From Candidatus Aenigmatarchaeota archaeon (lineage in GTDB: Archaea > Aenigmatarchaeota > Aenigmatarchaeia > Aenigmatarchaeales > SZUA-1535): a stretch of 26,236 nt of DNA. Made by a program: the position numbers and the translations under genes. The first letter of the stretch is position 1; every line of letters begins with the position of its first letter. Shown here piece by piece: positions 7,561 to 25,700 of the stretch. The notes under the pieces were generated by a model, which saw only the letters and a program-made list of their open reading frames with translations, ran no database searches and was not told the DNA's origin. Location: positions 1 to 26,236 of the forward strand of contig WAOA01000018.1 of the NCBI GenBank assembly GCA_015521535.1, read 5' to 3'.

Positions 7561-7582
7561 CCTCTTAATCCCTGTATTGTGT

Positions 7583-9274
7583 ATGAGGATTTATCTTGCG
7601 GTGTTCATAACTTTCCTGTTTATGCTTCCGTCGGCAAGCGCAGATGTAATAGTAAATTCTCAGGACTGGAGAGATGTTTATCTTGTAATGCTTTACGCCA
7701 AATTCAAGGGAGATGATGTTCATTATATTCTGAATTTAGGTGAAACGGATATACTTCTCAAGACGTTAACAAAAAATGAAACCCATATAATTTTCGAGAG
7801 CGCAAAAAAACCTGTTATAAAAAATCTTAAACAATTCTTGCGAAATTACGGTTTTTCAATAGTCTCGGAATCTGTATTCAACGACTACAACGACTTACAG
7901 ATTTCACTTTATAACGAGATAAAGGATAAAATAAAAGGCTTTGTAGTAATAAATCCTGATTTTGGATACGACGCCATTTCCGTATTTCCGCTCGCGGTTA
8001 CCGAGAACAGATGGGTGCTCTTCTATAACAAAAATTACGAGACAAGGATAATAAATCTTTTGAAAAACGAGGTAAAAAAGGATGTTGTGTTCTACGGCGA
8101 ATTTCTTTCTCAACCGTGGAAGAAAATTCCGAATTTCTATGAAATAATCTATGAACCGCCGTTCGAAAGAAATAAAATAATAGTTGAAAGAGTCTGGAAT
8201 AAGGTTAACGGCTGGATTTCATTATCGGACGGACAATATATAGAAAAAGGCTTTCTTCTCCAGGGAAAGCCCATACTTCTTATAAGGGATTCTCCGCAAG
8301 CGATCACGGATTTTCTTAAAAAACTCAAAGTAAAGGTAGTTGAAATAATAGGCCCTGAGAATGTTGATTTCGGATATCAGATAAGAGACCTTTCTAACAG
8401 AACCATAGGCGTGGTTGCAAAAATAGGAAGAACTTTTACAGGCGATCCAGAACTGAGAGGAAAGTTCTACACGCTTCCGGAAAAGTCTGTAGATATAGAG
8501 ATACATGACCTGCGGTTAGAAAAAATCCTATGGAATAATAGGGAAGTGATTTTGGTGCTGAAAAATTACGGGAATGTAAAAGAATTCTTTAAAATAAGCG
8601 CGTTACGACTCATAGGGAAGGAGGAATATCCTGTTACAGACGATAAACTTCATGTTATCAAACCGGGGGAAACCGTTTCAATACCTTTTTACGGAAATTT
8701 CTCCTCTTTGAGAGAAGGTGAGGTTTTTATAGTATACGGAAGTGAAAAATTAGTTTTCAGAGTTAAGAACCAAACCACAGGAAAATACTTCTTTTCAACA
8801 CAGTTTTATCCCGCTCCTGAACTTAAAAAACCTGAAGTTGAGGGTATATTTTATGACGATACCATTGAAAAACTCTGGATAAAGATCAGAAATCCTAATA
8901 ATCAACCTTTGTGGATTAGAGCGGAAGTCCATAATTTTACTTTCCTCAACAAAAGCATAATACTTTCTTCTCCAACGGTAAAAATACAAGAAGAAGGTTA
9001 TATACCTATTTCGGTGTATATGGGTAGGGAAGATATAGATGTCAATAAGAATCTAACTGTATTGATATTCTACGGTGAAAATGAAGATATTCTATCTGAA
9101 ATATATATATATTCTCAAAAAAAACCTATTAAACCTCAAAGAATAGATAATACCTTATTTATAATAGTTATAGTAACGGCAGTATTTGTTTTTATAGTAA
9201 TCGTTTTAATTTTTACCAAAAAAGGTATTATCTCCTTGGAATTCCTTAAAAATATTTATATAAGAAAAAAATAA
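7583..9274 (+). CDS. Membrane-anchored surface protein with three degenerate cell-wall-binding-2 (CWB2)-like repeats and two Ig-like domains; paralog of 16064-17770
   Basis: Signal peptide; NSQDWRDVYLVMLYA, DFGYDAISVFPLAVTENRWVLF, KPILLIRDSPQAITDFLKKLKVKVVEIIGP; C-terminal TM plus basic tail. Confidence 0.65.
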   Translation: MRIYLAVFITFLFMLPSASADVIVNSQDWRDVYLVMLYAKFKGDDVHYILNLGETDILLKTLTKNETHIIFESAKKPVIKNLKQFLRNYGFSIVSESVFNDYNDLQISLYNEIKDKIKGFVVINPDFGYDAISVFPLAVTENRWVLFYNKNYETRIINLLKNEVKKDVVFYGEFLSQPWKKIPNFYEIIYEPPFERNKIIVERVWNKVNGWISLSDGQYIEKGFLLQGKPILLIRDSPQAITDFLKKLKVKVVEIIGPENVDFGYQIRDLSNRTIGVVAKIGRTFTGDPELRGKFYTLPEKSVDIEIHDLRLEKILWNNREVILVLKNYGNVKEFFKISALRLIGKEEYPVTDDKLHVIKPGETVSIPFYGNFSSLREGEVFIVYGSEKLVFRVKNQTTGKYFFSTQFYPAPELKKPEVEGIFYDDTIEKLWIKIRNPNNQPLWIRAEVHNFTFLNKSIILSSPTVKIQEEGYIPISVYMGREDIDVNKNLTVLIFYGENEDILSEIYIYSQKKPIKPQRIDNTLFIIVIVTAVFVFIVIVLIFTKKGIISLEFLKNIYIRKK

Positions 9275-9330
9275 TAACGTTCCGAAAGACTGTTTTTCTA
9301 ATTCTAGAATTTCTTAAAAAAATTTATTAA

Positions 9331-10986
9331 ATGGTTCTGCTCAAAAATATAAGTGTGAAAAAAAGAAATCTGCTTTGGATTATAGGTATAGTAGGAATAG
9401 TTATTAGTATAGCGTATGCTCAGAACATTAGCGTTAAAGCAGGGTATATTACAAAAGCGAATCTTTATTCTGAAATCTCTACATGGAGATGGGGGGGGAT
9501 AATAGGGTATGTAACCCCAGGTACGCTTCCCGAATCTCCGGATCCTTTTCTTCAGCATAGTATAACAGCGGGAGTAATAGATATGATAAACGTCTCGGCA
9601 TCAAATCTCAAAGACGGCAAACACTATTTTGCCGCACTACCTTATGACACCGCTCTCACTATAAATGTGAGTAAGATGCGGAATATTACAGAGAATGATT
9701 TAGAAGAATTCGGAATTTTCAACGCCACCAATTTTCCGATATTTCATCCGAACTATTATCAGAACAGCGATAACCCGAAAACCACTTTTTGTTGTTATAA
9801 TGAAACGATTCTGATTTCTGGCAAGCCCTTTACGGCTTTCAGGATAGTGCTTAAAAATAATGTGAGATACTATCTCTTGAAATACCAGTTTAACGACTCT
9901 TATGCTCTTCCTCTTTTCCTTGTAAATATCTCCGATTATACATGCTACGACTCCACTACATGTCAGTTCGAATTCATGCTTCCTGCAGATAAAACTTATC
10001 AACTGTATGTGCTTTCGAAAGAGCCGGCGTATGACATAAAAGTTTTCGTAGATGGGGTGGAAACTACTGATATACCGAATACGGGATTACCTTATAATAT
10101 TACTACGGTAGTGTACGATATATATACACAAATACCTGTACCTAACAAGACTATTGTAGTATTCGAAGATAACGGTAATAATATATTTTCACCTTTACCG
10201 ATTATTTCGACCACATCAAGAGTTATGGCTTATACCGAATCCGACTCTAAAGGCAGGGTACAGTTTATAATATCTCCTACACCTACATTTCAAGAAGCAG
10301 GAATTTATTCATTAAAAGTAGGTATCTTGAGCACTAAAGATATAATCACAAATCAAAAAACGCTAAACATTCTGGATATGGAACTTAAAGGCGGTAAAAA
10401 ATATATATCGCCTACAGAACTTTTGGACAATTCGAAAGCCACGGTAGTTTACATGATACAGTTAGAGGATAGTGTGTATAACTGGGCTCAGCAGAGAAAG
10501 GCTAACAAGTATACAATTTTTGTCGACACTTCCGGAAGTTACACTATAAGAAATGAGTCGGACGGATTATATTATTCATCAGCATCCATACAAACAGGCG
10601 CAGTGAATTATATCAGCGTAATACTTCGCTCCGGCGGGGTGGATGTTCCGGGATATGTTGTACCAGAAGAAACAGCAGGATTTATAGTAATGAATCCCAC
10701 TTATAATCCGCCTGTCGTCGGTCCTAAAAACCACACCCATAAAGTTTTTTATATCCCGACAGGTACAGGATTTGTTATAGCGCCTACAAAAATGGGTCCT
10801 GCAAACAGCGAGGTAAAGTTATATGTGTATGATTCAAATTATTATCTCGTTGCCACGATACCTTTATACATAGATAAATCCACAACTATTACAGGCAATG
10901 CTGTATTTTACCAAAACGATGACATGCAGGCAAAGATAGTAAAAACCATACAGGTGATAAACACTCTGTACTACGCCTATTGGTGA
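9331..10986 (+). CDS. Secreted protein: N-terminal domain A (homologous to 18211) plus domain B (homologous to the C-terminus of 10991); putative adaptor/base subunit
   Basis: Signal peptide to AYA|Q; SVKAGYITKANLYSEISTWRWGGIIG aligns with TVQAGYIRLANVSTEMSTYHWAGIYG; no TM anchor. ORF is confident, function is inferred. Confidence 0.6.
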   Translation: MVLLKNISVKKRNLLWIIGIVGIVISIAYAQNISVKAGYITKANLYSEISTWRWGGIIGYVTPGTLPESPDPFLQHSITAGVIDMINVSASNLKDGKHYFAALPYDTALTINVSKMRNITENDLEEFGIFNATNFPIFHPNYYQNSDNPKTTFCCYNETILISGKPFTAFRIVLKNNVRYYLLKYQFNDSYALPLFLVNISDYTCYDSTTCQFEFMLPADKTYQLYVLSKEPAYDIKVFVDGVETTDIPNTGLPYNITTVVYDIYTQIPVPNKTIVVFEDNGNNIFSPLPIISTTSRVMAYTESDSKGRVQFIISPTPTFQEAGIYSLKVGILSTKDIITNQKTLNILDMELKGGKKYISPTELLDNSKATVVYMIQLEDSVYNWAQQRKANKYTIFVDTSGSYTIRNESDGLYYSSASIQTGAVNYISVILRSGGVDVPGYVVPEETAGFIVMNPTYNPPVVGPKNHTHKVFYIPTGTGFVIAPTKMGPANSEVKLYVYDSNYYLVATIPLYIDKSTTITGNAVFYQNDDMQAKIVKTIQVINTLYYAYW

Positions 10987-10990
10987 TGAA

Positions 10991-12793
10991 ATGAAGAAAG
11001 AGATATATTTAATATATTTCATTGTACTATCTGCGTTTTTAATAACCCCTGTTTTAGGAGTCACGGCAAGCATAAAAGATTCAAGTTTCAATACCGTAAA
11101 TCTTTACTATACCGGCTCTTCTTCTTCTGATCCTGGTCAGTATTATTTTGATGGCGTACCGAGCAAAGGAAATCCTAATGTAGGCATAGAACTTTGCGAT
11201 GCTGGGCAGGCATATGTTGGCGCTGCGTACGCTATAAATGTAGGCGGTAGTTGGCAATACGCTTTAATAACGTACGCCTCATCTTCAGAAGCACTTTCAT
11301 ATACTTCACAATCCGGCTCTGCAGCAGGCTGTTACTTTACACCAATAGATTTCCTTACCTTCAGCCCGTATCTTTACACAACCCCGAATCCGGATGTTTA
11401 CGTTGCTGCTTTTCCCGGAAGGCTTTACGTTGCCTATGAGACAAGCGCTAATCCCGGGACGCTGAGTAATTTTGTGTTTGTCGGAAACAACGGCTATCTT
11501 CGTGGCAGTTATACCGTGCCCAGAAGCTTCGATGAAAGCACATGTACAATAAGCATCTCTGAACCCACAATTTCCTTTCAGTATTACGGCGGTAGTTTTT
11601 CTGCCGGAGCGAGCGACTCCAATGTAGGAATTTCTAATGAGAGAAGAATGGTAATAGGTGTTTGTACAGACGATCAAGGAAGTGCCTGCAATGACGGAAC
11701 AGTTCTAAGCTCTGCTACATTTCCTTTGACACTCGGTACAGGGCTCACGGGCTCGCCGTGTGTTAATGATCAAGCCACACCTATAGATAGATATGTGGTG
11801 ATAAACGGTCTCGGAAACTATATCTGCATAGGCCCCAACCTTAAAGTTTCGATAACACAACTTTCTCCGAATCCTGTGTATTATAACCAGACTCTGACCA
11901 TAAGTTACAGAATCACAAACCCGAGAGATACGCCTTACGAGACGCAGGGAGGGAATGTAAGGGTCACGACGGATTTTACGGTTAGAGTTTCGATTTTCAA
12001 CGCTTCAAATCCCTCGCAGATCGTGTATGAAAATGTAGAAACCATAACGGATGACATTCCTGTCAACGGTGCTGTTGACAGAACTCTCTACTGGCGCGCC
12101 GCTGTACACAGCGGAACGTATACGGTAAAAGTAGAAGTTGATTACGGCTCTGCAATAGGAGAGTGTAACGAAGGTGATAATTCAGCACAACAGAATTTCG
12201 AAGTTAAACCTGTTGTAATTCCGGAAATATGGATAAACGGAAATAAAACAGATACCTTTCCCTATCCCGGCAGACCTTACAACTTCTCGCTCTATCTGAG
12301 AAATTCCGACAACGAAACCTTGAGAAACGCTTATGTAAAAATTGTGGAAAAGAACGGACTCTCGCTTTTCACACCCACGCAGATATGGGATAAGATTCAC
12401 GACCAATACGGAAACAAAACAAAAAATGCAACAATAGTTACTTCTATAACAGAAGTTTACACAGATTATTACGGATGGGTTAATATTACTTTAATTCCCA
12501 CCGGCAATAGATTATTCGCTCCTGAATATGCCTATACAAACGCTTCGCAGGTACTCGGAAACTATTCTTTATACCTTACAGGAAGATATCTCAAAGGTAA
12601 TATATGGGAAGATTTCAAATTCGTTATAAACGATCAACTTCTTGACAACTACCCTCTCAACATCCAAAATCCGTATACATACAAAGGTTACGATAAAGAA
12701 ATCGCATTCCATAATCAGAAAAACTTTGTCGAGGTAGTTATGGATTTCGTTTACACAGTATTCGCAAATTTCTGGAAAGCGATTGTAAAGTGA
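10991..12793 (+). CDS. Secreted protein: domain C + CARDB + domain B; putative adaptor
   Basis: Signal peptide; CARDB-like PNLKVSITQLSPNPVYYNQTLTISYRITN...YTVKVEVDYGSAIGECNEGDN; SD GGTGA; N- and C-terminal domains shared with 12800 and 9331 respectively. Confidence 0.6.
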   Translation: MKKEIYLIYFIVLSAFLITPVLGVTASIKDSSFNTVNLYYTGSSSSDPGQYYFDGVPSKGNPNVGIELCDAGQAYVGAAYAINVGGSWQYALITYASSSEALSYTSQSGSAAGCYFTPIDFLTFSPYLYTTPNPDVYVAAFPGRLYVAYETSANPGTLSNFVFVGNNGYLRGSYTVPRSFDESTCTISISEPTISFQYYGGSFSAGASDSNVGISNERRMVIGVCTDDQGSACNDGTVLSSATFPLTLGTGLTGSPCVNDQATPIDRYVVINGLGNYICIGPNLKVSITQLSPNPVYYNQTLTISYRITNPRDTPYETQGGNVRVTTDFTVRVSIFNASNPSQIVYENVETITDDIPVNGAVDRTLYWRAAVHSGTYTVKVEVDYGSAIGECNEGDNSAQQNFEVKPVVIPEIWINGNKTDTFPYPGRPYNFSLYLRNSDNETLRNAYVKIVEKNGLSLFTPTQIWDKIHDQYGNKTKNATIVTSITEVYTDYYGWVNITLIPTGNRLFAPEYAYTNASQVLGNYSLYLTGRYLKGNIWEDFKFVINDQLLDNYPLNIQNPYTYKGYDKEIAFHNQKNFVEVVMDFVYTVFANFWKAIVK

Positions 12794-12799
12794 TGGGAA

Positions 12800-15121
12800 A
12801 TGAAAAAATATATTTTAATGGCTGGAATAATGCTACTTGTAATAAATGTCTCCGTAGCCATGACGGTAAATCTTACGGACTATTACGGCAATGCCACATC
12901 GCTTTTATACGATTACGATAACGTTACGCAATACACTTCATGGTCGTATAAAGATTCTTCTTTAAGAAATCCGAATGTGTTTATGAGGCTGTGTAATCTT
13001 ACAAACGATTTCTACAACGTTTTTCTTGACTTAAGATATGCTACAGAATCAGGAAACCTTTCGGAATCATTGCTTTCTCTTCTACCTCTCGTCAATCTCA
13101 CGAATCTTTCCTCTTCATGTAAGTTTATAGATATAGATATCTCTAGCTTCAAAGCCCTTTATCCAGCATATCCGTTTTTCTATCTTCTGAATTCTTCAGC
13201 GAATTCAAGCGTTATCGCGAAATTTAAACTTTCAGAAAGTTTCAACGGCTCCTACAAGGTGGGAATAGATGTAGATAATGTGGATAAAATTACCTATATT
13301 ACTATAACCGAAATATACGATGATAGGGGAAGATTGATCAATACTTCGTATCCAAAACTTTACATTACAATTTTAAAAAACAATACTCCTGTTGCTGAAG
13401 GAAAAACTGCTCCCAGATCGCCTTTGCCGTTCAATTACACTTTTGTTGATGAAGAAGAAATATATGTAAACGGAATTCTTTCGCTGAAAGTAAAAACCTT
13501 CGAGCCGTGCGGAGTTATAAACGAATCCGGGTATTATATCCTGAACGCTTCTGCATGGAATGTTAACGATACCTGTATAGTAATAGAAAATATTTCAAAT
13601 ACGTTTCTTAATTTTGCAAATCTCACCATTGATGGTGATTACAGCGTAAACGGCTCTTTGCGTGAAGATGTCTGCGGCATACTGATAAGAAATTCGGAAA
13701 ACGTTTCTATCTATGATATGCGCGTCGAACATTTCGGAAGAGGTGTATGCGTAAAAAATTCTCGTGGAGTAAAAATTTACGGAACACATGCAAGCGAGAA
13801 TCTTAAAGGCATTTATCTTGAAAACTCCTCAGTGGAAATTTCAAATATAAAGTTGAACACGGTTAAAGAAGAAATCTTTGCAACCAAGAATTCCTATGTA
13901 AAGGTTAATCGGGTGGAACTTCCAGAAGAAACCAAAGTTTCTTTTGAAGCATCTGACATAGCGCTACGAGACGTTCCTGATCCGCCTCCCGATAGAGAAG
14001 GTTACAAAAACATAAAACAATTCGCTAATATCAGCAAAACCGAAGGCGATGCATGGGTTTATAAAATAACATTTCACTATACGTATCCGCTGCCTAACAA
14101 TGTCACGCATGTAGTTTACATCACAAAAGTAGACGGAATATATCTTAACGGAACATGGGCAAATCTTACATATCAAGATTTTCAAGCAAATAAACAGGAT
14201 TTTTCGGATAAAACCGGAAAAATTACTCACGGTTATGCATGGATAGAAGAAAATTTCACGGATTTCTCTATTTTCATACCTTACGGTTTGAACATAACGG
14301 CTCCGCAACCGGTTCCGCAGCCTCAACCGAGGCCGACTCCAACACCATCTCGGATAATAGGCAAGGTTGAAGAAATAGTACCGCCGAATCTTAATTTAAC
14401 CTTACATACATATGAAATAACAATCCAACAGGGAGAAATTAAAGAAATAGGTTTTAATCTATCAAATGAAGGAGATGTAGATGTATACAATGCCGTGGTT
14501 CTCGCTTTGGTTAGAAAGGGCTGGCTAACCGCAGGTGTAAATTTCGATGTGGTTAGAGCAGGAGAAACGAAAATAAGTAAGTTTTACCTTAAAGTATATG
14601 AAAATGAGATTCCGGGAGTATATTATATACCTGTAAAGGCTATACTCAAAGAAAACAATGTTACGGTAGATGTTGAGATATTAAAAGTAAGGGTTGTACC
14701 GAGACAGAGGATTGCTAAAATAGATATTCTGGAAATTCTCCCGTATCTTTCTTTACCCGAGCATTCCAAGGTACCCATCTCGGTTTTGGTAGAAAACACA
14801 GGAGATTATGATCTCCAAAATATTAGACTTTCTATAGAAGGTGCGGAAAAATGTATAGAAAAAATCGAAGGTAAGTATGATCTCAAAAGAGGTGAAAAGA
14901 AAAGTTTGACGTTTATCGTTTATACGAAAAATGCAGGGAATAAATGCACAGGTGTATACGTCTTCAGATCAAAAGAAGGAATAGTCGGAATGTATCCGGT
15001 AATAATAAAGATAAGACCGAAGACGCTGGTAGAGATAATAAAAATATTCCCGATAATATACATTATATGGACGCTCTTCACGATATATATAATTTACAGG
15101 AGGTTGAAAAAACGTGGCTGA
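12800..15121 (+). CDS. Membrane-anchored surface protein: domain C, right-handed beta-helix (NosD/pectin-lyase-like), PGF-pre-PGF-like domain, Pro-rich linker, two NEW3/CARDB-like domains, C-terminal TM
   Basis: PCGVINESGYYILN...GILIRNSENVSIYD..VEHFGRGVCVKNS; APQPVPQPQPRPTPTPS; FNLSNEGDVD and VLVENTGDYDL; TM IFPIIYIIWTLFTIYII plus RRLKKRG. Confidence 0.7.
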   Translation: MKKYILMAGIMLLVINVSVAMTVNLTDYYGNATSLLYDYDNVTQYTSWSYKDSSLRNPNVFMRLCNLTNDFYNVFLDLRYATESGNLSESLLSLLPLVNLTNLSSSCKFIDIDISSFKALYPAYPFFYLLNSSANSSVIAKFKLSESFNGSYKVGIDVDNVDKITYITITEIYDDRGRLINTSYPKLYITILKNNTPVAEGKTAPRSPLPFNYTFVDEEEIYVNGILSLKVKTFEPCGVINESGYYILNASAWNVNDTCIVIENISNTFLNFANLTIDGDYSVNGSLREDVCGILIRNSENVSIYDMRVEHFGRGVCVKNSRGVKIYGTHASENLKGIYLENSSVEISNIKLNTVKEEIFATKNSYVKVNRVELPEETKVSFEASDIALRDVPDPPPDREGYKNIKQFANISKTEGDAWVYKITFHYTYPLPNNVTHVVYITKVDGIYLNGTWANLTYQDFQANKQDFSDKTGKITHGYAWIEENFTDFSIFIPYGLNITAPQPVPQPQPRPTPTPSRIIGKVEEIVPPNLNLTLHTYEITIQQGEIKEIGFNLSNEGDVDVYNAVVLALVRKGWLTAGVNFDVVRAGETKISKFYLKVYENEIPGVYYIPVKAILKENNVTVDVEILKVRVVPRQRIAKIDILEILPYLSLPEHSKVPISVLVENTGDYDLQNIRLSIEGAEKCIEKIEGKYDLKRGEKKSLTFIVYTKNAGNKCTGVYVFRSKEGIVGMYPVIIKIRPKTLVEIIKIFPIIYIIWTLFTIYIIYRRLKKRG
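14300..14350 (+). repeat. Pro/Gln/Thr low-complexity linker (in-frame)
   Basis: Encodes APQPVPQPQPRPTPTPS; imperfect CCG-CAA/CAG/ACT codon repeats. Confidence 0.7.
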
Positions 15122-15368
15122 AAAAGATGAGAAAAAAGAAGAGGAATTTGATTTTATTACACCGTATCTTGAAAAAATAGGTCTGGAAGAAAAGAAAGAG
15201 AAAAAAAAGCACGAGGAACGTCATCTGGAAATTCACGGTGGAGAAATAGTAAATGATATTATAGAACTCGCAAAGAAGGAAAGAAAAATAACTCTTACGC
15301 TTGGGATAGAAATAGTTTTAACGGTTATATTAATACTTATGCTCCTAGGAGTGATTCCGTTTTTCTGA
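15114..15368 (+). CDS. Small tail-anchored membrane protein, hypothetical
   Basis: GTG start overlapping the upstream stop with SD GGAGGT; charged N-terminus and a single C-terminal TM; no signal peptide. Confidence 0.62.
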   Translation: MAEKDEKKEEEFDFITPYLEKIGLEEKKEKKKHEERHLEIHGGEIVNDIIELAKKERKITLTLGIEIVLTVILILMLLGVIPFF

Positions 15369-15575
15369 CCAAAACTGAAAATATATTTAGACCGTTCGGA
15401 TAAAAGCCCACCTCCTTAAAAATATACATCTGCACATAAGGAAAGTACATCCTGTCGTGATAAGAACTGGGAAGAGGGTTGAAAATGAATCGCCTATATA
15501 GATTTTTCTGTGCGCGATAATCGCCGCATGCATGAACTTTCGCCCGCTCGCAATATCTTTTATCTCAATTCTTGA

Positions 15576-16031
15576 TTATCCGGATGTTCCCATTTTTCTG
15601 AGCATGGTTATTATATTTTTCTTTATTTTTTCCTTTCTCCTCGGAGGAATCGGTTTGGAAGAATATTCTATGTAAATCATATTTTCCAGGAATTCTATAA
15701 CATCTTCCTTTTCATCTTCCGGAATGCTATCTAACTCTTCTATTCTTTTTTTCATCTCCATGTAAGTCGTAACACCCTTAATGTTGTATTTCCTTTTAAG
15801 AAATTCAAAAATCCTGTCTCCCAAATCGATGAGCTTTTTTCTCATGGTTTCAGAAGATGAAGCATCAAGAATTTTATCCAGCGTTAAATCAAATGAAATT
15901 TTGTTTAATACCGCTCTAAGTTTTTTAATCTCGTTTTCTGTTTCTTCGAACCTTTTTTTAAAATAATAAAACTGAAAACCTGCTATACCGAGCGCTAAAA
16001 CCAATACAACAACTAAAGCGAGTTCTATCAT
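15576..16031 (-). CDS. Single-pass membrane protein with coiled coil and helical cytoplasmic domain, hypothetical
   Basis: N-terminal TM, FEETENEIKKLRAVL coiled coil, then TTYMEM...FLENMIYIEYS, loosely reminiscent of DUF4129-type domains found near MoxR/DUF58 loci (weak). Confidence 0.62.
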   Translation of the reverse strand: MIELALVVVLVLALGIAGFQFYYFKKRFEETENEIKKLRAVLNKISFDLTLDKILDASSSETMRKKLIDLGDRIFEFLKRKYNIKGVTTYMEMKKRIEELDSIPEDEKEDVIEFLENMIYIEYSSKPIPPRRKEKIKKNIITMLRKMGTSG

Positions 16032-16063
16032 GGTTTATTTTTTGACAAAAGGAGATTATAAAT

Positions 16064-17770
16064 TTATCTCTTGTAGCGATATCTGTAATGTTTCGGCTTT
16101 CTTTTAGAGAGTATGAATAGTATCACTATACCTATACCTACAATCACAGGAATTATTAATATCATCGGAATTCCAGAAGCAACTTCTACCGGAAGCGTTA
16201 CCACGGCTGATTTTACAACAGCATCTTTCCTTTCTCCGTAATCCGCTTCTATTTTTATCTTAGAATTTTCCTGAATATCTATTTCATCAAGTTCGGCAGG
16301 AATATATATTTCCTTTACTTCTCCCGGTTTAAGTTCTACAATACCCGAACTCAAAGAATCAGTAATGCCTTTAATTTTAACATCGAGGAGTTTTATTATA
16401 ACAACCGCCTTAACATCGCCTATATTTTTAACCTTAATACCGAATCTTTTAGAGCCCTTATAGTATTTCGCTTCGAGAATCTCTATCTTCGATCGATCCT
16501 TTATTTCAGAGATTTTTAATGGTAGTGAAAACGGCGGGCCAAACTTGCCTGCCTGCGTTAGATACGAATCAAGGTTTTTCGGAGATTCACCGTATGAGGT
16601 ATAGAACTCTACTGTTATATTTCCTGTCAACTCGGTAAGAAAAACATCGTAACTTCGCCATACGCTTTCACCCGCTCCTATGAAAACCGCTTCGCTATCT
16701 CCGCCACTCGCAATTTCTTGACCGTTTTTCAGAACTCTGAAAGTGGTGAACTCGTACACCCCTGTTTGCCCTTCATTCGAAAACTGGATCATTAACTTTT
16801 TGTTTTCAGGATCGTAAACCGCTGAAAGTATGTTTAATTTTAATTCGAGCTTCGGGAGGGGAAACATAGAAAGAGCGTAAATCTGACCGCTTATTCCAGG
16901 TGTGGATTGACCGAATTTTATGAACACGGATACTTTTTTGTTGGTCTTTTCTCTTATTCTTTCTCCGACATAAGTGAGTTGCGGGCCTATTGCTATTACC
17001 GTTTTTATTCCGTTCGAGTTTATAAAATCGAGAACTTCGTCAGGAAGTAGATTTGTTCCCACAAGAAGAACGGGAGAAGCGCCTTTAAGAATTTCAAGTT
17101 CTATATAATTTCCTTCCGTGATAATCGCCTGTGAAGTTTTTTTCACTTTAAGGAACTCTTCACCCAGTTTAGCGCTTATTTCAAATTTTGAGTTTCCTGT
17201 TATTCTTTTATCGAAGTACTGGGAAATTGTATTTTCTATGGATCTTTTGAAATTACCTATTCCTACTACTTTCTGAGCGTTTGCAAGCATACTTGCTATG
17301 TCGTTTGCATTGTTATCGTTAACTATTAAGACCCATGCTCTGTTTGCCATTGCAAGCGCTCCTGCAGGAAGAGAGAGATAGGGAAAATCTTCTTCCACAA
17401 CGTAATAAGAATTTGCTTCTTCCGGCTTGAGGTCTCTGTAAGAATTCGTTACGGTGATTTTTTGTACTATATTATAACCGCGCAATCTTATCTGGCTTTC
17501 GAGATTCGGAATGTATCTGTCGCCGGATTCTATAAGAATTACGGGCTGCTTAGGAAGAACGTTAAAAAGTCCTGCAGGATTAGGAGAATTCGCGAAATAC
17601 ACAGGATAGTTGTTGTAATTCGCGTAAAGCACGCCGTAATAAACATCTTTCCAGTCCTTGGAATTTATCACAACAACTTCTCCGTGAACAACAGGGAGAA
17701 GCATAAAAAAGACTCCGATAGAAACTACAAGGTATCGGTATGAATTTCTCGTGCCTAGTTTCGTCATCAC
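16064..17770 (-). CDS. Membrane-anchored surface protein with three CWB2-like repeats and two Ig-like domains; paralog of 7583-9274
   Basis: NSKDWKDVYYGVLYA, DFPYLSLPAGALAMANRAWVLIV, KRITGNSKFEISAKLGEEF, PVLLVGTNLLPDEVLDFINSNGIKTVIAIGP; C-terminal TM plus KRKPK. TATA TTTATAAA at 17800-17793. Confidence 0.68.
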   Translation of the reverse strand: MMTKLGTRNSYRYLVVSIGVFFMLLPVVHGEVVVINSKDWKDVYYGVLYANYNNYPVYFANSPNPAGLFNVLPKQPVILIESGDRYIPNLESQIRLRGYNIVQKITVTNSYRDLKPEEANSYYVVEEDFPYLSLPAGALAMANRAWVLIVNDNNANDIASMLANAQKVVGIGNFKRSIENTISQYFDKRITGNSKFEISAKLGEEFLKVKKTSQAIITEGNYIELEILKGASPVLLVGTNLLPDEVLDFINSNGIKTVIAIGPQLTYVGERIREKTNKKVSVFIKFGQSTPGISGQIYALSMFPLPKLELKLNILSAVYDPENKKLMIQFSNEGQTGVYEFTTFRVLKNGQEIASGGDSEAVFIGAGESVWRSYDVFLTELTGNITVEFYTSYGESPKNLDSYLTQAGKFGPPFSLPLKISEIKDRSKIEILEAKYYKGSKRFGIKVKNIGDVKAVVIIKLLDVKIKGITDSLSSGIVELKPGEVKEIYIPAELDEIDIQENSKIKIEADYGERKDAVVKSAVVTLPVEVASGIPMILIIPVIVGIGIVILFILSKRKPKHYRYRYKR

Positions 17771-17818
17771 AATTTATTTGTTATAAGATATATTTATAAA
17801 TTACTCTATATAACGATA

Positions 17819-18166
17819 ATTAAATACTCTAACAATGTAAAAGTTTCGCGAAAATTACAAAAATTACGAGAACTATGCTGAGAAAGGTTATTTCATGGTT
17901 AATTGTTTTTATATCGTGATTTCGCGCTTATTATAACGTATTTATTGATCAATTCAATCAATATCATAGTTTATCATAAGTTTATGATCTTTTTATTTAA
18001 TCGAATAAAGCACAAAGAAAACTGATTTCGCGATTAATCATTTTAAATTATCTTTTTACTATTATCATAAGAATTTCATTATAAATCTGGAATTAAAAAT
18101 TTATTATAGAAAAGGGAGAATTTTTAATAAAAATTTCATTCTCGAGAAACCGATTAAATACTCTAA
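17819..18166. repeat. 14-bp direct repeat ATTAAATACTCTAA (17819-17832 and 18153-18166)
   Basis: Two exact copies, each just upstream of one of the two divergent TATA boxes; a degenerate third copy near 17796-17809. Confidence 0.55.
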
Positions 18167-18178
18167 AGTATAGATAAT

Positions 18179-18186
18179 TTTATATA
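18179..18186 (+). promoter_or_regulatory. TATA box (TTTATATA) of the major secreted subunit gene
   Basis: Consensus TATA 25 nt upstream of ATG 18211, implying a leaderless mRNA. Confidence 0.55.
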
Positions 18187-18210
18187 TCGGTTCTTATAAA
18201 AAATTAAACC

Positions 18211-18918
18211 ATGAAAGACGCATTTTTGAAGATTTGGGTAGCAATAACATCGTTTCTAGTAGCGGCAGTTCCGATAGCAATGGCAGCAACTCCGGGGCCT
18301 GCAGAAGTAACAGATATAGCGCAAAAAGGACCGTACTCATATACACCCACAACTCCGTCAACAACAGTCCAAGCAGGTTATATCAGATTAGCGAATGTCT
18401 CTACTGAGATGTCAACATATCACTGGGCAGGTATCTACGGTAATGCATCAGGTACGCTTGTATTGGGAGATGCTTCAGGTAGTAAAATGTATACCTGGAC
18501 GGCGACAGCAACTTATGTTTTCTTCGATGACGATAATACAATAAACTGGGGTACGATTGATAACGCCACATGTACAGATATAGGAACCAGTTTCAGTTTT
18601 ATAGCAGATTCCACGGGCGCTAGCGATAGTTGTTCTAATACATTTACCAATTCAGGTCCTACAAACTTCAAGTCAATAGGAAATGTGTTGAGCACGGCTT
18701 ACGCATTAACATACGACAACACCCAAACTCCAACTTGGAAGACATATGCCGTAAAAGATACCACACAGGGAGATGTATTCTTTGCAGCAGAAACAATTAC
18801 CACACCGGGAACTGCTTTTGATGGTTCACCCGCAAACTATCAAGCAATACTACCAGAAAACGGCGAGAATGCAGATACAACAACCCAGACATACTATATA
18901 TGGATAGAACTATTCTAA
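18211..18918 (+). CDS. Secreted 235-aa Thr-rich stand-alone domain A protein; candidate major structural subunit (filament or lattice)
   Basis: Sec-type signal MKDAFLKIWVAITSFLVAAVPIAMA; QAGYIRLANV, WAGIYGN.SGTLVLGD.SG..MY.W, AFDG...YQAILP, YYIWIELF; monocistronic with own promoter and terminator; ACA/GCA-biased codons unlike its neighbours. Confidence 0.7.
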   Translation: MKDAFLKIWVAITSFLVAAVPIAMAATPGPAEVTDIAQKGPYSYTPTTPSTTVQAGYIRLANVSTEMSTYHWAGIYGNASGTLVLGDASGSKMYTWTATATYVFFDDDNTINWGTIDNATCTDIGTSFSFIADSTGASDSCSNTFTNSGPTNFKSIGNVLSTAYALTYDNTQTPTWKTYAVKDTTQGDVFFAAETITTPGTAFDGSPANYQAILPENGENADTTTQTYYIWIELF

Positions 18919-18920
18919 AA

Positions 18921-18955
18921 CTTCTTGTCTTCTTTTTCTTCTTTTTTATAATTTT
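18921..18955 (+). terminator. Pyrimidine/oligo-T archaeal terminator
   Basis: CTTCTTGTCTTCTTTTTCTTCTTTTTTATAATTTT immediately after the stop at 18918. Confidence 0.65.
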
Positions 18956-18956
18956 A

Positions 18957-19101
18957 CGGGTCGTGTCCGGATAACCGCGAATTACGCGATAGAGCACATG
19001 TACTCGGCGAGACCCGGGAAATATCGAAGTATTTCCGTGTAAAAGTTCATGTTCTATAGTTAATTCTTTTGTGAATCGCGAGAAACGCTTATCCGGACCC
19101 G
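18957..19101. other. Nested imperfect hairpin of about 145 nt; candidate structured RNA or cis element
   Basis: GTCCGGATAA (18965-74) pairs with TTATCCGGAC (19089-98); CGCGAATTAC with GTGAATCGCG; ATAGA..ACATG with CATGTTCTAT; inner GGAAATAT-CGAA-GTATTTCC. Confidence 0.45.
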
Positions 19102-19196
19102 GTAGATATTATAACGGTGTTAGAGAACTTCGTAAAGAAATTGCTCGAATTCTGTGAAAAAACAGGAATAGATCCGTAACAAAGTTGGGTATTACT

Positions 19197-20189
19197 CTAA
19201 ACAGCCCCGAATTTCGAGAATAACAGCAACTCAAGTGCTATTAAAATCGAGATGAACAGAAGCACGTAATAGTCAGAGTTCAGCGGTATTCTTTCATTCT
19301 TCACAACTATGTTTTTCATGGATTCCTCAAAAGCGGTTTCATTAGTCACAAAGAAGAATTTTCCACCCGTTTCCTGAGAAATTTTCCGCAAATTTCTATC
19401 ATCCAATTTAGGGAACGAGAATTTAATTCCTTTCTTCTTCGCAACTTTCTCCAGTTCGCTAATCAACTCTCTCGTTTCATTTGTCACACCTATGCCTATT
19501 GTATAGATAACTATTTTTTTATCTCTGGCCTCTTTAAGCGCGAGAGTAAGGTTTCTTCCTGCATTATTTTCGCCGTCCGTAATTATAATTAAAAACCTCT
19601 GCTTATCGGAATCCGCAAGAACGCTCGCTCCCGCGAAAATCGCTTCTCCTATGGCGGTACCGCTACTATTACTTTCAACTTTCAGCGATAAAATTTTGTT
19701 TTTTATTTCAAACGTATTCAGAGTTAAGGAAGTTAACGGAGCAGCCCTTTCGGAAAATTTTATCACACATAGCTTGGAAGCCCCAGGCAAAGAGTCCATC
19801 CAGTCCAGAATAGTTTGTTTAGCAAACTCTATTCTGTTTGGCTCGTAATCAGGAAGAAGCATTGTCTGAGAAACATCTACCGCTATGCAGAAATCTGTGT
19901 TTGCAACTGGTTTTACAAGACTAACCTGTATTGATTCTGTTGCAACGAGAAAAAGCAGGGTTACCGTAATTAACTTTACCGCAAGCAGCCAGGGACTCGG
20001 CACTATGGATTTGTATCCGTGAACTTTTTTAAGCGTATGAAAATTCGCGAATTTTAAAATTCTATTCTTTCTCATTTTCGTCATTAAGATATAGGAAATT
20101 GTAACTATTGCTAACAGCAGCAATAGCATTCCTATGCTTCTCCAGGGAAGCATAATCACAACCTTTATTCCTAAAAATTCTATTTCCAT
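19197..20189 (-). CDS. Membrane-anchored von Willebrand factor A protein, BatA-like
   Basis: Two N-terminal TMs with ILKFANFHTL between them; MIDAS-like AVDVSQTM, GTAIGEAI, IITDGENN, IYTIGIG, ISQETGGKFF; C-terminal TM. Confidence 0.9.
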   Translation of the reverse strand: MEIEFLGIKVVIMLPWRSIGMLLLLLAIVTISYILMTKMRKNRILKFANFHTLKKVHGYKSIVPSPWLLAVKLITVTLLFLVATESIQVSLVKPVANTDFCIAVDVSQTMLLPDYEPNRIEFAKQTILDWMDSLPGASKLCVIKFSERAAPLTSLTLNTFEIKNKILSLKVESNSSGTAIGEAIFAGASVLADSDKQRFLIIITDGENNAGRNLTLALKEARDKKIVIYTIGIGVTNETRELISELEKVAKKKGIKFSFPKLDDRNLRKISQETGGKFFFVTNETAFEESMKNIVVKNERIPLNSDYYVLLFISILIALELLLFSKFGAV

Positions 20190-21076
20190 ATCCTTTCACC
20201 GAAAAGATTTACTATCATTTTAACCATATTCTTTTCCGTAGTATAGACCTTTGCGAAAAGCGCTCCCGCTTGTGTGAATTTATTCTTTATCTCCTCTTCT
20301 TCTCTCCTTGCGTTTTCGTTGAATTCATCTCTTATCTTATCGGCATCAACAAGATTTATTTCTCCTGTAGCAGGGTCCTGAATGTAAATCTTGCCAACAC
20401 CTTCCGGAATGTAACTGTCGAAAGGATCTCTTATCATAATTCCGGCCACTCCTTCAAATTTGTTTGAAGCTTTCAAAACAAAGTCGTAAAGTTCCTCTTT
20501 CGGGCCTATGAAGTCGGAGAGAATGAAAACAAAAGAATCGGGTCCAAAAGTTTCGAGAACGGCGGGAGTAATTATACCCCATCTTTTTTCCCCGCCGTAA
20601 ATATTTTTATCCGTTAAAACTTTTGCTATTTGGAGGACCGTATCTATGCTTACCGAAGGGTCTATAAACACTTTTATCTCGTCGGAAAACCCGATCATGC
20701 ACACTCTATCTCCAAGAGTATGCGAAACAAGAGCAAGGGTTGTGGCTAGAATTGAAGCATATTCGTTTTTCACGAGTTCGGTTGTGCCAAGCGTCATGGT
20801 TGTGGAAAGGTCTACTATATAAATTATATCCAACTTTCTCTCTTCCTTGAAAACCTTAACATGCGGCTTTCCTGTTCTTGCATAGGAGTTCCAGTCGATA
20901 AACCTGGCATCGTCCGCTTCCGTATATTCTCGCAACCTATCAAATTCAATACCTCTTGAAGTAATCACCTTATAATAAATGAACTGAAATTTCAGAAGTT
21001 CCACCAGTTTCCACACGTTTATAATACTTCTCTTCCATAAATCGTTAAATTCTAAAGTTGAGACGTTTACCTTCAC
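20180..21076 (-). CDS. DUF58 family protein (MoxR-associated, vWA-like)
   Basis: GIEFDRLREYTEADDARFIDWNSYART...VKVFKEER, VDLSTTM, LSDF; GTGA start/stop overlap with moxR. Confidence 0.9.
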   Translation of the reverse strand: MKVNVSTLEFNDLWKRSIINVWKLVELLKFQFIYYKVITSRGIEFDRLREYTEADDARFIDWNSYARTGKPHVKVFKEERKLDIIYIVDLSTTMTLGTTELVKNEYASILATTLALVSHTLGDRVCMIGFSDEIKVFIDPSVSIDTVLQIAKVLTDKNIYGGEKRWGIITPAVLETFGPDSFVFILSDFIGPKEELYDFVLKASNKFEGVAGIMIRDPFDSYIPEGVGKIYIQDPATGEINLVDADKIRDEFNENARREEEEIKNKFTQAGALFAKVYTTEKNMVKMIVNLFGERIWK

Positions 21077-22083
21077 GGAACTTCTACCCCTTCGAGAATC
21101 TCGTCTATAATTTCATCCGTGCTTATGCCGGCTGCTTTACCTTCATAGTTAAGGATTATTCTATGTCTTAGTACAGGATGCGCTACAAGTTTTACATCGC
21201 CTGGGGTAACAAAATCCCTTCCATCCATCAGAGCCACGGCTCTTGCCGCTAAAGCAAGAGAAATACTACCTCTCGGAGAGGCACCGTATCTTATATATTT
21301 CGAATATTTTATTTTCTCGTCTTTCGTTCGTGTAGCGGTGATTATCCTTAAAATGTACTCTTTCACCGGCCTTGAAACGTAAATTTTTCTAACATCTCTT
21401 TGAATGTTAAGAATCGTTTCTCTGTCCATCACGGATTTTACCGGATCGAAAATATTATATCTTACAAGTGTATTCCTATCTATAATCTCTAATTCCTCAT
21501 CCCATTTCGGATAATCGACAAGAATTTTCATGAAAAATCTATCAACTACCGCCTCTGGCAGCGGATAAACACCCTGCTGCTCCAAAGGATTCTGCGTGGC
21601 AAGCACAAGAAAGGGCTTCTCCAATATAAACTCTTCTTTATGGATGTTAACCTTCCTTTCCTGCATCGCTTCCATCATCGCTGCCTGCGTTTTCGGAGGC
21701 GCTCTGTTTATCTCGTCTGCCAGTATAAAATTAGCGAAGATAGGGCCCTTTATGATATAGAAATCGCCTTTTACGGGATTGAAAGCATTAACTCCTATAA
21801 TATCCGAAGGAAGCATATCCGGTACGAACTGTATTCTTCTGAAAGTTGTTCCTACTATGCATCTTGAAAGCGTTTCGACGAGTAAGGATTTAGCTAGTCC
21901 CGGTACGCCTTCCAAAAGCGCGTGAGCATCGCAAATCAAACAGATTAGCACGTGCTCTATTACCTCATTCTGACCCACAACAACTTTTTGAATTTCTTTT
22001 TTCATTTTTTTGAGAATATTCTGATAGTTTTTTATGGTCTTTTCAGGAAGGCTGCTTTCCTTTCCAGGAAGATATCTTTTCAT
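21073..22083 (-). CDS. moxR: MoxR family AAA+ ATPase
   Basis: LLEGVPGLAKS, RIQFVPDMLPSDIIG, LADEINRAPPKTQAAMMEAMQER, ATQNPLEQQGVYPLPEAVVDRF, GASPRGS. Confidence 0.95.
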   Translation of the reverse strand: MKRYLPGKESSLPEKTIKNYQNILKKMKKEIQKVVVGQNEVIEHVLICLICDAHALLEGVPGLAKSLLVETLSRCIVGTTFRRIQFVPDMLPSDIIGVNAFNPVKGDFYIIKGPIFANFILADEINRAPPKTQAAMMEAMQERKVNIHKEEFILEKPFLVLATQNPLEQQGVYPLPEAVVDRFFMKILVDYPKWDEELEIIDRNTLVRYNIFDPVKSVMDRETILNIQRDVRKIYVSRPVKEYILRIITATRTKDEKIKYSKYIRYGASPRGSISLALAARAVALMDGRDFVTPGDVKLVAHPVLRHRIILNYEGKAAGISTDEIIDEILEGVEVP

Positions 22084-22309
22084 AGGTTTTATAATGTAAT
22101 TTGAAATTAATAAAAGTTAAGAGATATTCAGAACTGTCCGGATAACAACGCTTAAATGGTTTTCGATCCTATACTCAAATTTTTGAGATTTATTAACACG
22201 AAATGTCCTAAAAAAGACGCGATGTTTAAATATAGCAACGACAAGTCTTTCACGCCTCGCAGAATATTTCGCGGTTAATGATCTTTTCGTTAATTAAGGT
22301 ATTCTCATA

Positions 22310-22742: not shown

Positions 22743-25700
22743 TTATTTAACTTCCATGAAGATTTTTATCAAATCGTTTGTTCCTTTAAGATCTCTTAAT
22801 AATGCAGGAATTCTTGCTTCGTAATCATATGTTCCGTAAGTTCCCTGAGCGTCGGAATTAATTTTTGTGATGAATATCAAATCCTGTGTACCATTATACT
22901 CTGTTCCTCCGTCACCGGAATCCCATAAAATACCTGTGATGAAATTACCGTTATTACTGTCTGTTGAATTTATCACGGGGACATCGCAAACCGTACGCGA
23001 GCCTATTTCAAAGCACGCTGTAGTATCTGCTACACCATCGTTGTTTTTATCGTAAAGCGCTTCTACCGAATCACTGAATCCTGTCATGTTAAGGGCCTGA
23101 TCAGCCTCGGTAAAATCATTTGTGCCGTTAAGCGGCATTAAATCAGCGAAAGCGTAATCCGAGTCGTAATCAGCAAAGTATAAATTACCTTGCTGCGTCA
23201 TCGGAATCCATACACTAAAGTTATTTCCTGCACTGTCTTTTATAGCTATCCATCCGTTTGTATGTCCGTAATAAATCGCCCATCCGCTCACATTGTAAGT
23301 AGTGCTGTTAAAGTTATTACTTTCATTCGTTTCGGATATCGTGTTTGCGGGATCTACAGTAACAGAGAAATTCCATGTTCCAGGTTTTGCAATCCATGTA
23401 AAGTTCACGAGTTCATAGGTGTTTGCAGTTATGTTAACCACGCTCTCGTTTGTTTGCTTAAGTATCCATACGGTTCCGTTAAAGCTGTAAATATCGAGTT
23501 GTACTGTTACATTTGTGGCATCTACACCGGCTTCTTCAGAGACATTTGCCGTAATCATCAGTACTTGATTTTCTACAATATTTTCCTGTGAAATATTGAA
23601 CATTATATTGTTCGCAACTAAATCAGGTTGCGTGCTCGCTCCAGTGAATGCTTCAAAACTCGTGACGTTAAACCAGATATGCGTGGCATTTTCTCCGTAA
23701 CCTTCAAGATTTGCAGGATCTATGAACTCCCATTGCGAACAATTTGCATTAACAAAGTCCCATGCTATGCAGTGGAGCACATTCTGAACGGTTACACCGT
23801 TTTTCGGAATAACAAGTTTTGCCTTTTCAAAAGCCAAACCTGTATCGTTTAGCGCGTATATTGGAGTGATAGCAGAAACGTTGCTCGGTAAAAAGCCCGC
23901 ATAGTTTTCAACGACCTGCTCTTCTATTTTTAAGTTCATTTTAGAAATATTTAGATTATAAATTCTTGATCCCAATCCGTCACTTACAGGCGTAAAACTC
24001 TTATAGGTATAATTTTCGTAAATTTCTAAAGATGCCGTAATGCTTCCGTATCCGCTTGCCACAAGATTATTATTTTTATCGTAAATTTCTATCCGTGTAT
24101 TAGGATTCACGTGATAACTTGAATTGTATGAATTTACAACTATAGGCGTGGAGATATTCCAGGTAATGTTTATATTATATACTTCAGGTCCGTTCAGTGC
24201 TGTTTTGGTAAACAAACCTATTTTCACGTATATGGAATCCGAAGTAATTCCGGAGAGATCACAGTTCGAAGGTGAAGATGTACAGTTAACGAGGAATACA
24301 TTATTCCAGTTATAAACTTCATAGGTGATATTTCCGTTATTAAGTATATGATCCGCGGAGAATTTTTCCCATTTACCGAGTTTAAGCGGTTTAATGAGAA
24401 TTGTTTTTACCCACGCATTATGCTTTCTGCTTTCTTCAACTTCTTCGAAAACTTTATCCACATAACCCTGTTTTCTTATTTCAGCCGAGAGATTCGTTCT
24501 AAAGTAGTAATAAAATCCGCAGGTCGCAGGGTCAGCGTTAACCTTACTGTTAACCTGCGGAGTTACCGTAAATGAAGTTTTTCCTCTGATATCTTGGCTA
24601 ACATCCTTTGGCCATGTGCTTATATGGGTTAGTGTACACCCGTCTATTCCAGGCGAGTAAACCCCGTAACACGAACCTTCTACCGTGACGTTAAATCTCT
24701 CGTATGTTTCTCCTGCAGCACAGGTAGTATTATCTGCATACGAACCGCCAAAGCCGAGATCGCCCGCTGCTTCTAAGTCGACACTACCTGAGTAAAACTC
24801 GTATCCGGCAGGTGCGTTGAACGCCATCGGACAACTACCGCCTGTAGTAGAGCCGGAACATGTCTGGCTCGCGGAATAAGAATCGAAAACACTACTTGAG
24901 TTGCTTTCGCTTTCCACAAGCATGTTTCCGTAATACATGTAAACCGTTGTATTGCCTGCGCTTATTTCAGGCAGTCTTATCCAGATTTTTGTTTGTGTGG
25001 TATTACAATTACCTTCTAAGTAGTACGGAATCTCTTTTTCTTCACCGTTAGTCATATTTATCCATGTAAATCTAATATCTTTACACGTAGAATTCATTTT
25101 ACTCGCGGATATTAAATTCTGTGTATCGACAGTAAGATTAACCTGGAAATCGGTTAGTGTTTGAGAATTGTTTATTATCATGGGTTTTCTGTAAAGATAA
25201 CATTTTCCTTCGATATACCAACAGAAATCTATACTTAATTTATTACTAACACTAGCATTTTCACTCTGATTTATTCCGGATTTTGTTGCAAAATAATCTT
25301 GCCATAGCGTTGCGTTTACAGTAAAACTTATGCTGCTCCATCCTATCCTTCCCGCGGTGTCATTGGCATAAACATAAAGTTCATTTGTTCCTGGCTTTGC
25401 TGCTATGCTTGTGTTTGGTGTGAACGTTTCATTCGCCTTACCGTTTATCGAGAACCACCATGTATCAATTGGTTTATTCGAAACAACTTCCAAAGGTATG
25501 TAGTTTGTAGTGCTATAAGTCTTTGATTGAGGTGAGAGTATATCTATGACAGGAGCCGTAGTAGATATTCTCACACTTCTTAATCCACTCGCGCTCCAAT
25601 GGTTATAGGAATCGTTAGCATATACGCGATAATAGTAAGTTCCGTCATTTAAGTCTGTCACATTAAACCAGAAACTTCTCGATGTTAATGTGTTCATAGT

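Follow-up and report, generated by a model that had tools for sequence, protein, structure and literature searches.

A secreted beta-rich protein of a DPANN archaeon as a candidate subunit of a Sec-dependent, non-type-IV surface polymer

Introduction

Among the filament subunits of Archaea, the type IV pilins and archaellins carry a short, charged class III leader with a [KR]-[GA] cleavage site and retain a hydrophobic helix of about 20 residues in the mature protein; they are abundant, N-glycosylated, and often encoded by tandem paralogs, and genes for an assembly ATPase, a platform protein, and a prepilin peptidase accompany those of the subunits. The thread subunit Saci_0406 of Sulfolobus acidocaldarius is a Sec-exported, non-type-IV, small beta-rich glycoprotein; in the threads, an N-terminal strand is donated to the next subunit, head-to-tail, and the locus lacks dedicated ATPase machinery (PMC9715654). 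The CanA cannulae of Pyrodictium (PMC12518558), the AbpA bundling pili, and the haloarchaeal Tafi (PMC12337348, PMC11821415) are TasA-like strand-donation filaments. All three are chaperone-free polymers of secreted subunits that have extracellular matrix or adhesion roles and are co-encoded with minor partner proteins (PMC12518558, PMC12337348, PMC11821415). Among bacteria, chaperone-usher pili (Fim/Pap) are built from one major repeating subunit with accessory proteins, and the Pam pili of the CPR demonstrate that ultra-small episymbionts use fibres of this organization with no outer-membrane usher (PMC13278184). DPANN archaea live attached to host cells. Where the two meet, filaments, tubes, and attachment organelles have been seen by cryo-tomography, and most of the proteins that form them await identification (PMC11420986, PMC11329633).

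Here, we report a comparative analysis of a gene for a small secreted protein, referred to as the A protein, in a DPANN archaeon. The window, i.e., the whole stretch of DNA that was analysed (26,236 nt), is one whole contig of an assembly of 422 kb in 42 contigs, about 70% complete and with 36% GC. Congeneric genomes have been deposited as Aenigmatarchaeota or Nanoarchaeota MAGs. In a search of sequencing runs, DNA of the locus was found only in hydrothermal-vent metagenome runs, with no RNA run among the matches.

The A protein has points in common with each of these systems. Like Saci_0406, it carries a Sec-type signal, is beta-rich, and has an arm that may connect subunits head-to-tail, the polymer being here a prediction; unlike in Saci_0406, the arm is about 45 residues long and confidently packed even in the monomer, and neither a sequence-profile nor a structural match surfaced in the PDB. 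It resembles CanA, AbpA, and Tafi as a secreted protein encoded together with partner proteins, and may likewise polymerise by chaperone-free strand donation, but it has no Pfam match and no Tat signal. Moreover, giant adhesin-like proteins carry the A module at their ends, an arrangement that has not been described for those filaments. With the Fim/Pap and Pam pili it would share an organization in which a major repeating subunit is encoded in a single locus with its adaptor, anchor, and tip proteins, all having a common interaction module, whereas the organism is an archaeon, the partner genes are different, and an Ig-like incomplete fold, a chaperone, and an usher were not recognised. Judged from the models, the A protein probably works like the Sec-dependent strand-mediated filament subunits, yet by sequence it falls into none of their families.

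Results

The A gene and its product

The following features of the gene and protein were delineated, based on composition, family membership, alignment, and structural models.

18211..18918, + strand: A gene (ORF, composition, and family membership)
18211..18285, + strand: Sec/SPase-I-type signal peptide, residues 1-25 (sequence reading, alignment, and hydropathy)
18286..18423, + strand: N-terminal arm, residues 26-71 (three-copy model and comparison with the nearest relative)
18373..18465, + strand: residues 55-85, where conservation within the family is strongest (AG-I--AN strand followed by the ST-HWAG-YGN--G-L-L hairpin)
18886..18915, + strand: C-terminal strand QTYYIWIELF (family consensus phi-[WY]-phi-E-L-x; part of the predicted acceptor surface)

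The ORF starts with ATG and encodes a stand-alone A-module protein of 235 aa. Its leader, read by eye, consists of the n-region MKDAFLK, a hydrophobic core, and A-M-A followed by A, which is of the SPase I type, and we infer cleavage after A-M-A. The mature protein (about 210 aa, 22.5 kDa, pI about 4.05) is rich in Thr (17%) and Ala (12%) and poor in Lys and Arg (3.4% together), begins with the polar sequence ATPGPAEV, and forms no N-terminal helix in the post-cleavage model. By reading of the protein sequence, no class III site ([KR]-[GA] before a hydrophobic residue), Tat motif, or C-terminal sorting motif was found, and no hydrophobic segment exists beyond residue 30 (maximum KD19 0.5). Cysteines are at positions 121 and 141, and the sequons are NVS62, NAS78, and NAT118. 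Thus, the protein is as the first-pass annotation had described it, with a Sec signal and no class III motif, no TM anchor, two cysteines, and three N-X-S/T sequons. AglB (STT3) is absent from the incomplete source assembly; since it is present in all three congeners (3/3), N-glycosylation of the A protein is plausible.

Membership among type IV pilins or archaellins was rejected given the SPase-I-type leader, the missing N-terminal helix, and the lack of a co-encoded T2SSE. Domains of the T2SSE type or related ones were found neither in the window nor in the syntenic loci. Four T2SSE homologs (type-IV-pilus/archaellum-type ATPases) reside on other contigs (C15, C42, C7, and C16), and their presence in a very small genome indicates that type IV filaments are probably also made.

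A family of A-module proteins

Scans of the A protein against Pfam (0 families at E<=0.1), NCBIfam, and PHROGs assigned it to no family; a 144-member family profile compared with all PDB sequences gave 0 matches at E<=10, and the named clusters of a protein-language-model atlas contained no usable match. On the same grounds (no Pfam family, no PDB profile match), membership in the TasA/AbpA/camelysin-like families was rejected at the sequence level. In the literature, no paper describing the A-module family was found.

Relatives are nevertheless numerous. A word-indexed search retrieved 13 unnamed homologs with 49-75% identity and lengths of 231-257 aa, and an exhaustive search yielded 594 cluster representatives at E<=1e-3, including 155 at E<=1e-10. 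The motif family that the first reading had named for DPANN genomes is therefore real. Nearly all representatives are 215-250 aa long, with the alignment running to the very last residue, and the A protein matches the 155-member profile with E 8e-76. Typical members have about 230 aa, a signal peptide, an AG-I--(A)N strand, a T--W-G-YGN--G-I-L hairpin, conserved W96, D139, and T144, and a C-terminal signature phi-[WY]-phi-E-L-x, or [FILV][WY][IVL]-E-L-x. The final residue of this signature is variable. The aromatic-ending final strand noted earlier is present in the A protein, whose C-terminus is YYIWIELF, but its aromatic end is a trait of the subfamily.

The members are acidic, with a mean net charge of -18, and each contains 2-10 sequons; Thr, Ala, Ser, and Gly are abundant in them and Lys and Arg are scarce, a composition typical of exported archaeal surface proteins. 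A Cys pair occurs in about half of the members. None of the 155 members (0/155) has a C-terminal TM segment or anchor, as judged by hydrophobic runs of at least 15 residues within the last 40, and hence anchoring by archaeosortase/PGF-CTERM or a C-terminal TM segment was also rejected.

Only 3 of the 158 genera of the phylum contain the family. Every genome of the genus has it (4/4), none of the 24 other genera of the order does, and further members come from MAGs labelled as several DPANN phyla. This patchy distribution marks an accessory locus, possibly one exchanged between lineages.

Genomic context and reuse of the module

The A gene is surrounded by genes for large surface proteins, two of which contain A modules of their own.

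7577..15121, + strand: genes for four large proteins of 565, 551, 600, and 773 aa, secreted or anchored, with orthologs immediately beside the A gene of relatives
16064..17770, - strand: 568-aa secreted protein with a C-terminal anchor, paralogous to the 565-aa protein; its gene is transcribed divergently from the A gene and is also syntenic in relatives
9418..10008, + strand: second A module, residues 30-226 of the 551-aa secreted protein, directly after its signal peptide
22800..23303, - strand: third A module, residues 971-1138 of a 1156-aa giant surface protein, at its C-terminal end

Gene order is the same as in the window in the near-identical genome L003. In L004 and L005, whose A proteins are 48-50% identical to that of the window, the A gene immediately precedes, in the same orientation, the orthologs of the 565-, 551-, 600-, and 773-aa genes (36-49% identity); the other flank of the L004 gene contains a second A paralog and a 568-type gene. 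In the more distant L018 (25-30% identity), orthologs of the 151-, 551-, 600-, and 773-type, with no 565 type among them, precede three tandem A paralogs, and in L017 tandem A paralogs adjoin 568- and 565-type genes. Judged from gene order, the A gene is linked to large surface-protein orthologs down to 25% identity, and this synteny is the strongest evidence that the A protein may work with them.

Two or three tandem stand-alone A paralogs occur in other lineages (L017, 70-3610; L018, 9001-11388), compared with one stand-alone gene in the source genome. Such arrays resemble the multi-copy genes of archaellins and pilins.

The two additional module copies were identified with the 155-member profile; both are on the window contig, with none elsewhere in the genome. 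The conserved block of residues 55-85 recurs at the N-terminus of ORF 9331. The module of the giant protein aligns only from profile position 62, i.e., past the AG-I--AN strand. Complete A modules, arm included, are found elsewhere at the C-terminal ends of proteins that are about 3,100 aa or 343-785 aa long.

This apparently incomplete module could be read as a docking site. The A protein would then be a non-polymerising adaptor or cap, bound 1:1 to the A modules of the giant (C-terminal) and 551-aa (N-terminal) proteins, perhaps completing or shielding their interface instead of building a shaft: the former module, apparently without the arm strand, would leave a site for the arm of the small protein, and the interface elements are common to all three A-module proteins. 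We regard such a cap as quite unlikely, for four reasons. Firstly, other giant proteins possess the complete arm-bearing module, and so no cap is needed. Secondly, arrays of two or three stand-alone paralogs exist elsewhere. Thirdly, a separate promoter and terminator suggest stoichiometric excess. Finally, the homotypic model described below passes strongly by itself.

Promoter, terminator, and flanking spacers

18136..18210, + strand: conserved core promoter, TATA box TTTTATATAT and upstream ATTAAATACTCTAAAGTATAGATA block
18933..18955, + strand: terminator signal of archaeal type, made up of the oligo-T tracts T5, T6, and T4 and lying within 40 nt of the stop codon

With a divergent gene upstream (16064..17770) and a convergent one downstream (19197..20189), the A gene is monocistronic by geometry, as first annotated. 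The TATA-like sequence TTTTATATAT occupies 18178-18187 and starts at position -32/-33 relative to the ATG; the gene is not preceded by an SD-like 4-mer. Hence, a consensus TATA at leaderless spacing is indeed present. This spacing is ordinary leaderless geometry and not specific to the gene, as TATA-like motifs peak genome-wide at -32..-27 from start codons (67 ORFs among 370 ORF upstream regions). An SD-like word occurs in only 112 of these 370 regions, and leaderless transcripts appear to be common in this archaeon. A TATA box at about -33 recurs upstream of the A genes in L003, L006, and L008.

The spacer upstream of the A gene (17771-18210) had been presented as a 440-bp AT-rich regulatory region. 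Its length and composition are real (21.4% GC vs. 36% in the genome; the 7th longest among 61 divergent spacers), but the length is not conserved: the spacer of L003 measures 173 bp. The proximal part of about 75 nt is about 92% identical to L003, despite a coding dS of about 1, and no alignment to L003 was obtained farther upstream. The distal part of about 270 bp (window 17771-18100) has no counterpart in L003, is not repeated in the genome, and holds a 40-codon ORF.

The strong oligo-T terminator of the original description consists of the three tracts listed above. Oligo-T tracts likewise follow the A-gene stop codon in L003, L004, and L005, even where same-strand partner genes begin 86-88 nt downstream. 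A bacterial promoter and hairpin-terminator scan, uninformative for this archaeal region, returned no hairpin terminator around the A gene, as expected, and Rfam gave no match at E<=1 over 17700-19250.

Immediately downstream, a 145-nt nested hairpin (window 18957-19101) proved to be a dispersed element whose terminal inverted repeats are GTCCGGATAA...TTATCCGGAC. It has copies on C35 (96% identity over 138 nt), C42, C38, C21, C41, and C37, and end fragments of about 20 nt are found near several contig ends. A dedicated RNA gene was considered and rejected, as the element is MITE-like, with a fold z of only -1.9 and no Rfam match. In L003, the corresponding position (8759-9582, equivalent to window ~18956-19103) is occupied by a Polbeta (MNT)/HepT toxin-antitoxin pair in place of the repeat. 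As the spacer flanks align to those of L003 at about 90%, the downstream spacer of the A gene is an insertion hot spot.

Codon usage and expression

The codon preference of the A gene for ACA and GCA, by which it had been set apart from its neighbors, is borne out by comparison with the genome: ACA 0.53 vs. 0.38, GCA 0.64 vs. 0.38, and TCA 0.44 vs. 0.17, with GTA also preferred. The A-ending fraction of four-fold codons is 0.52 vs. 0.30 +/- 0.07, ranking 4th among 385 ORFs; the EF-1alpha, thermosome, and FtsZ genes are also high. The bias recurs in the A genes of relatives when compared with their own neighbors (0.64 vs. 0.27; 0.55 vs. 0.33; 0.70 and 0.64 vs. 0.47), though only weakly in L004 and L018. 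It characterises the family and may reflect translation or the structure or stability of the mRNA.

High expression had been argued from this bias, and this argument did not stand. The CAI of the A gene relative to ribosomal-protein genes is 0.737 (z=1.1; rank 39/385), the highest on the contig yet unremarkable. The 25 genes of the ribosomal-protein cluster (contig C4, 1715-12756) have an A-ending fraction of 0.316 vs. 0.309 in the genome; with no codon bias of their own, they render CAI-type arguments weak in this organism. High expression of the A protein is nonetheless plausible from the gene layout, and a promoter and terminator placed ahead of the partner genes fit a subunit made in excess.

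Divergence from the nearest relative

In comparison with L003, the A gene has dN 0.171, dS 1.01, and dN/dS 0.17, each the highest of nine genes; dN of the other genes is 0.004-0.07. Synonymous divergence varies strongly along the locus (window 10991-26138): dS rises from 0.08 (vWA and DUF58 genes) through 0.2-0.4 (600-aa, MoxR, and giant-protein genes) and 0.6-0.7 (773-, 151-, and 568-aa genes) to 1.0 in the A gene. Positive selection on the A gene was rejected, as a dN/dS of 0.17 is still purifying. A dS of about 1 that is uneven across the locus fits recombination better than simple positive selection, and suggests a mosaic, recombining locus, or allele replacement around the A gene. Nearly one-half of the differences in the mature protein (27/57) are within residues 30-67, i.e., in the arm. 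The A gene is the fastest-evolving gene of the locus, as expected of an exposed repetitive surface antigen.

Predicted fold

A model of the A protein from 14 sequences was mediocre (pLDDT 72), whereas the mature protein modelled with 144 sequences reached pLDDT 96.2 and pTM 0.89; the latter model is mostly beta, with two short helices. For neither did a search bring up a matching experimental structure. The best Foldseek matches in the PDB had E 0.34 (first model) and 0.95 (pLDDT-96 model), and the best VIA-align scores were Z 3.5 and 2.6, respectively, the latter over 48,161 representatives, where unmatched models usually still reach Z 7-8. Viral structures in BFVD gave no match (best E 0.23). 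Searches of AlphaFold DB clusters and the ESM Atlas revealed only uncharacterised archaeal relatives of the fold, including three ESM Atlas clusters of archaeal hypothetical proteins with Microcaldota and Woesearchaeota labels (TM 0.83-0.87).

None of the known filament-subunit families (thread, cannula, TasA/Abp, Tafi) surfaced in the PDB fold searches, a result still compatible with distant relationship; the Natrinema Tafi chain appeared at noise level only (Foldseek, E 2.6). The subunit fold sought for these families was a jelly-roll or Ig-like sandwich to which a neighbor contributes the completing strand. As modelled, the A fold bears at least no recognisable similarity to these subunits, although a missing match is no proof of newness.

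The faint, non-significant likeness to jelly-roll and carbohydrate-binding modules (Z<=3.5), together with the lack of an anchor and the fast divergence between strains, would suit a monomeric soluble secreted binding protein, lectin-like or acting as a host-surface ligand, for which the self-association model would be an artefact. This appears very improbable: the matches in question are at noise level, conserved residues are concentrated in strands and hairpins instead of lining a pocket, and both the tight synteny with anchored structural proteins and the presence of the module at the ends of giant proteins fit assembly better. The three-copy prediction, which scored 0.80 vs. 0.00 for the best control, also argues against it.

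Predicted self-association

The first-pass annotation had named a monomeric or enzymatic fold in structure prediction as the outcome that would speak against a structural subunit. What prediction yielded is head-to-tail self-association. Three mature copies modelled together gave an ipSAE of 0.80, a mark reached by 20 of the 30 proteins solved as same-chain pairs and by 1 of the 23 solved as single chains; these counts are only a rough guide for the A protein, as its prediction relied on a custom alignment and on three copies. Between runs, at least 96% of contacts agreed, with partner pLDDT of at least 78. As the PDB holds no sequence relative, it is unlikely that the model recalls a solved complex.

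One interface was reported for the three-copy model. In it, residues 14-49 of the scored copy (39-74 of the full-length protein, including the AG-I--AN strand) contact residues 43-74 and 200-210 of the neighbor, and the bodies also pack; arm residues 33-47 of one copy run along strands 49-60 and 205-207 of the next. The acceptor elements of the scored copy itself are uncontacted, and this free acceptor surface fits an open chain and not a ring.

Conservation in the family peaks in the elements that make these contacts, at residues 56-105, 136-145, 206-215, and 226-235. It averages 2.05 over the predicted interface and 1.53 over all other positions (p=2e-4), and 8 of the 10 nearly invariant positions belong to the interface, while a depletion of substitutions at the interface relative to the nearest relative was not significant (Fisher p=0.52). 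The A protein is thus predicted to self-associate head-to-tail. The arm need not be exchanged between subunits in such a chain: it is placed confidently in the monomer as well (pLDDT about 90), and in the fused proteins arm and body belong to one chain, so that the arm could simply pack within its own subunit.

Self-association may also produce a layer. Archaeal S-layers cover the cell as an unbroken paracrystalline envelope and are as a rule found throughout a lineage; their proteins are usually far larger than 22 kDa. A subunit of a two-dimensional S-layer-like lattice or sheath, in which the same homotypic contacts would tile the cell surface and the giant A-ended proteins would be inserted, would be secreted, acidic, sequon-rich, and self-associating, as the A protein is observed or predicted to be; it could well be the fastest-evolving product of its locus, expressed from a strong-looking promoter of its own, with membrane-anchored partners encoded nearby. 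We consider it unlikely, nevertheless, that the A protein forms such a lattice. A size of 22 kDa is very small for an archaeal S-layer protein, a family found in only 3/158 genera of the phylum and 0/24 other genera of the order is far from universal, and tandem paralog arrays are present in other genomes. In addition, the modelled contact is single and directional and leaves the acceptor end free.

Discussion

From the models and the locus taken together, the A protein is probably the unit that is repeated along a new surface polymer, one that is Sec-dependent and not of type IV. More specifically, we propose that it is a free-standing homotypic association module of DPANN archaea, a polymer subunit joined to large surface proteins, and assign this reading a probability of about 0.5. 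The original claim of a major structural subunit is retained insofar as it relies on a secreted anchor-less module, predicted self-association, and a conserved surface locus; its codon-based expression component is not.

The proposed sequence of events is as follows. After Sec export and cleavage of the signal peptide, the mature protein would be a beta-rich domain of about 22 kDa that binds the next copy head-to-tail. The 45-residue arm with its AG-I--AN strand would lie against the HWAG-YGN--G-L-L hairpin and the phi-W-phi-E-L strand of the neighbor, and the three-copy model may be read as an open extendable chain, i.e., a fibre shaft or a similar polymer. Domain sharing and synteny suggest two further roles for the interface: through its N-terminal A module, the 551-aa protein would connect the polymer with the 600- and 773-aa proteins and thereby with the membrane, and the giant A-ended surface proteins would be mounted on the polymer via the same contacts. 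Transcription from its own promoter, with a terminator before the partner genes, may supply the A protein in excess over the other parts.

A more far-reaching possibility, which we put forward tentatively, is a chaperone-free DPANN attachment fibre with a new fold. Its shaft would be made of A protein, adhesins of about 3,000 aa would be clipped on, and module-sharing proteins would tether it to the membrane; the locus would be exchanged horizontally among DPANN phyla, with the exposed subunit diversifying rapidly. If this is true, it would provide a molecular identity for tethers between DPANN cells and their hosts.

For the family, these results bring a proposed role to about 600 sequence clusters that are without annotation. 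The A protein is a concrete candidate for a component of the DPANN contact-site structures, and its 22-kDa secreted domain can be directly expressed and imaged. If confirmed, the polymer would constitute a new structural class of Sec-dependent, non-type-IV archaeal filaments, beside threads, cannulae, and bundling pili, and would explain how genome-reduced symbionts display very large adhesins on their surface without dedicated assembly machines.
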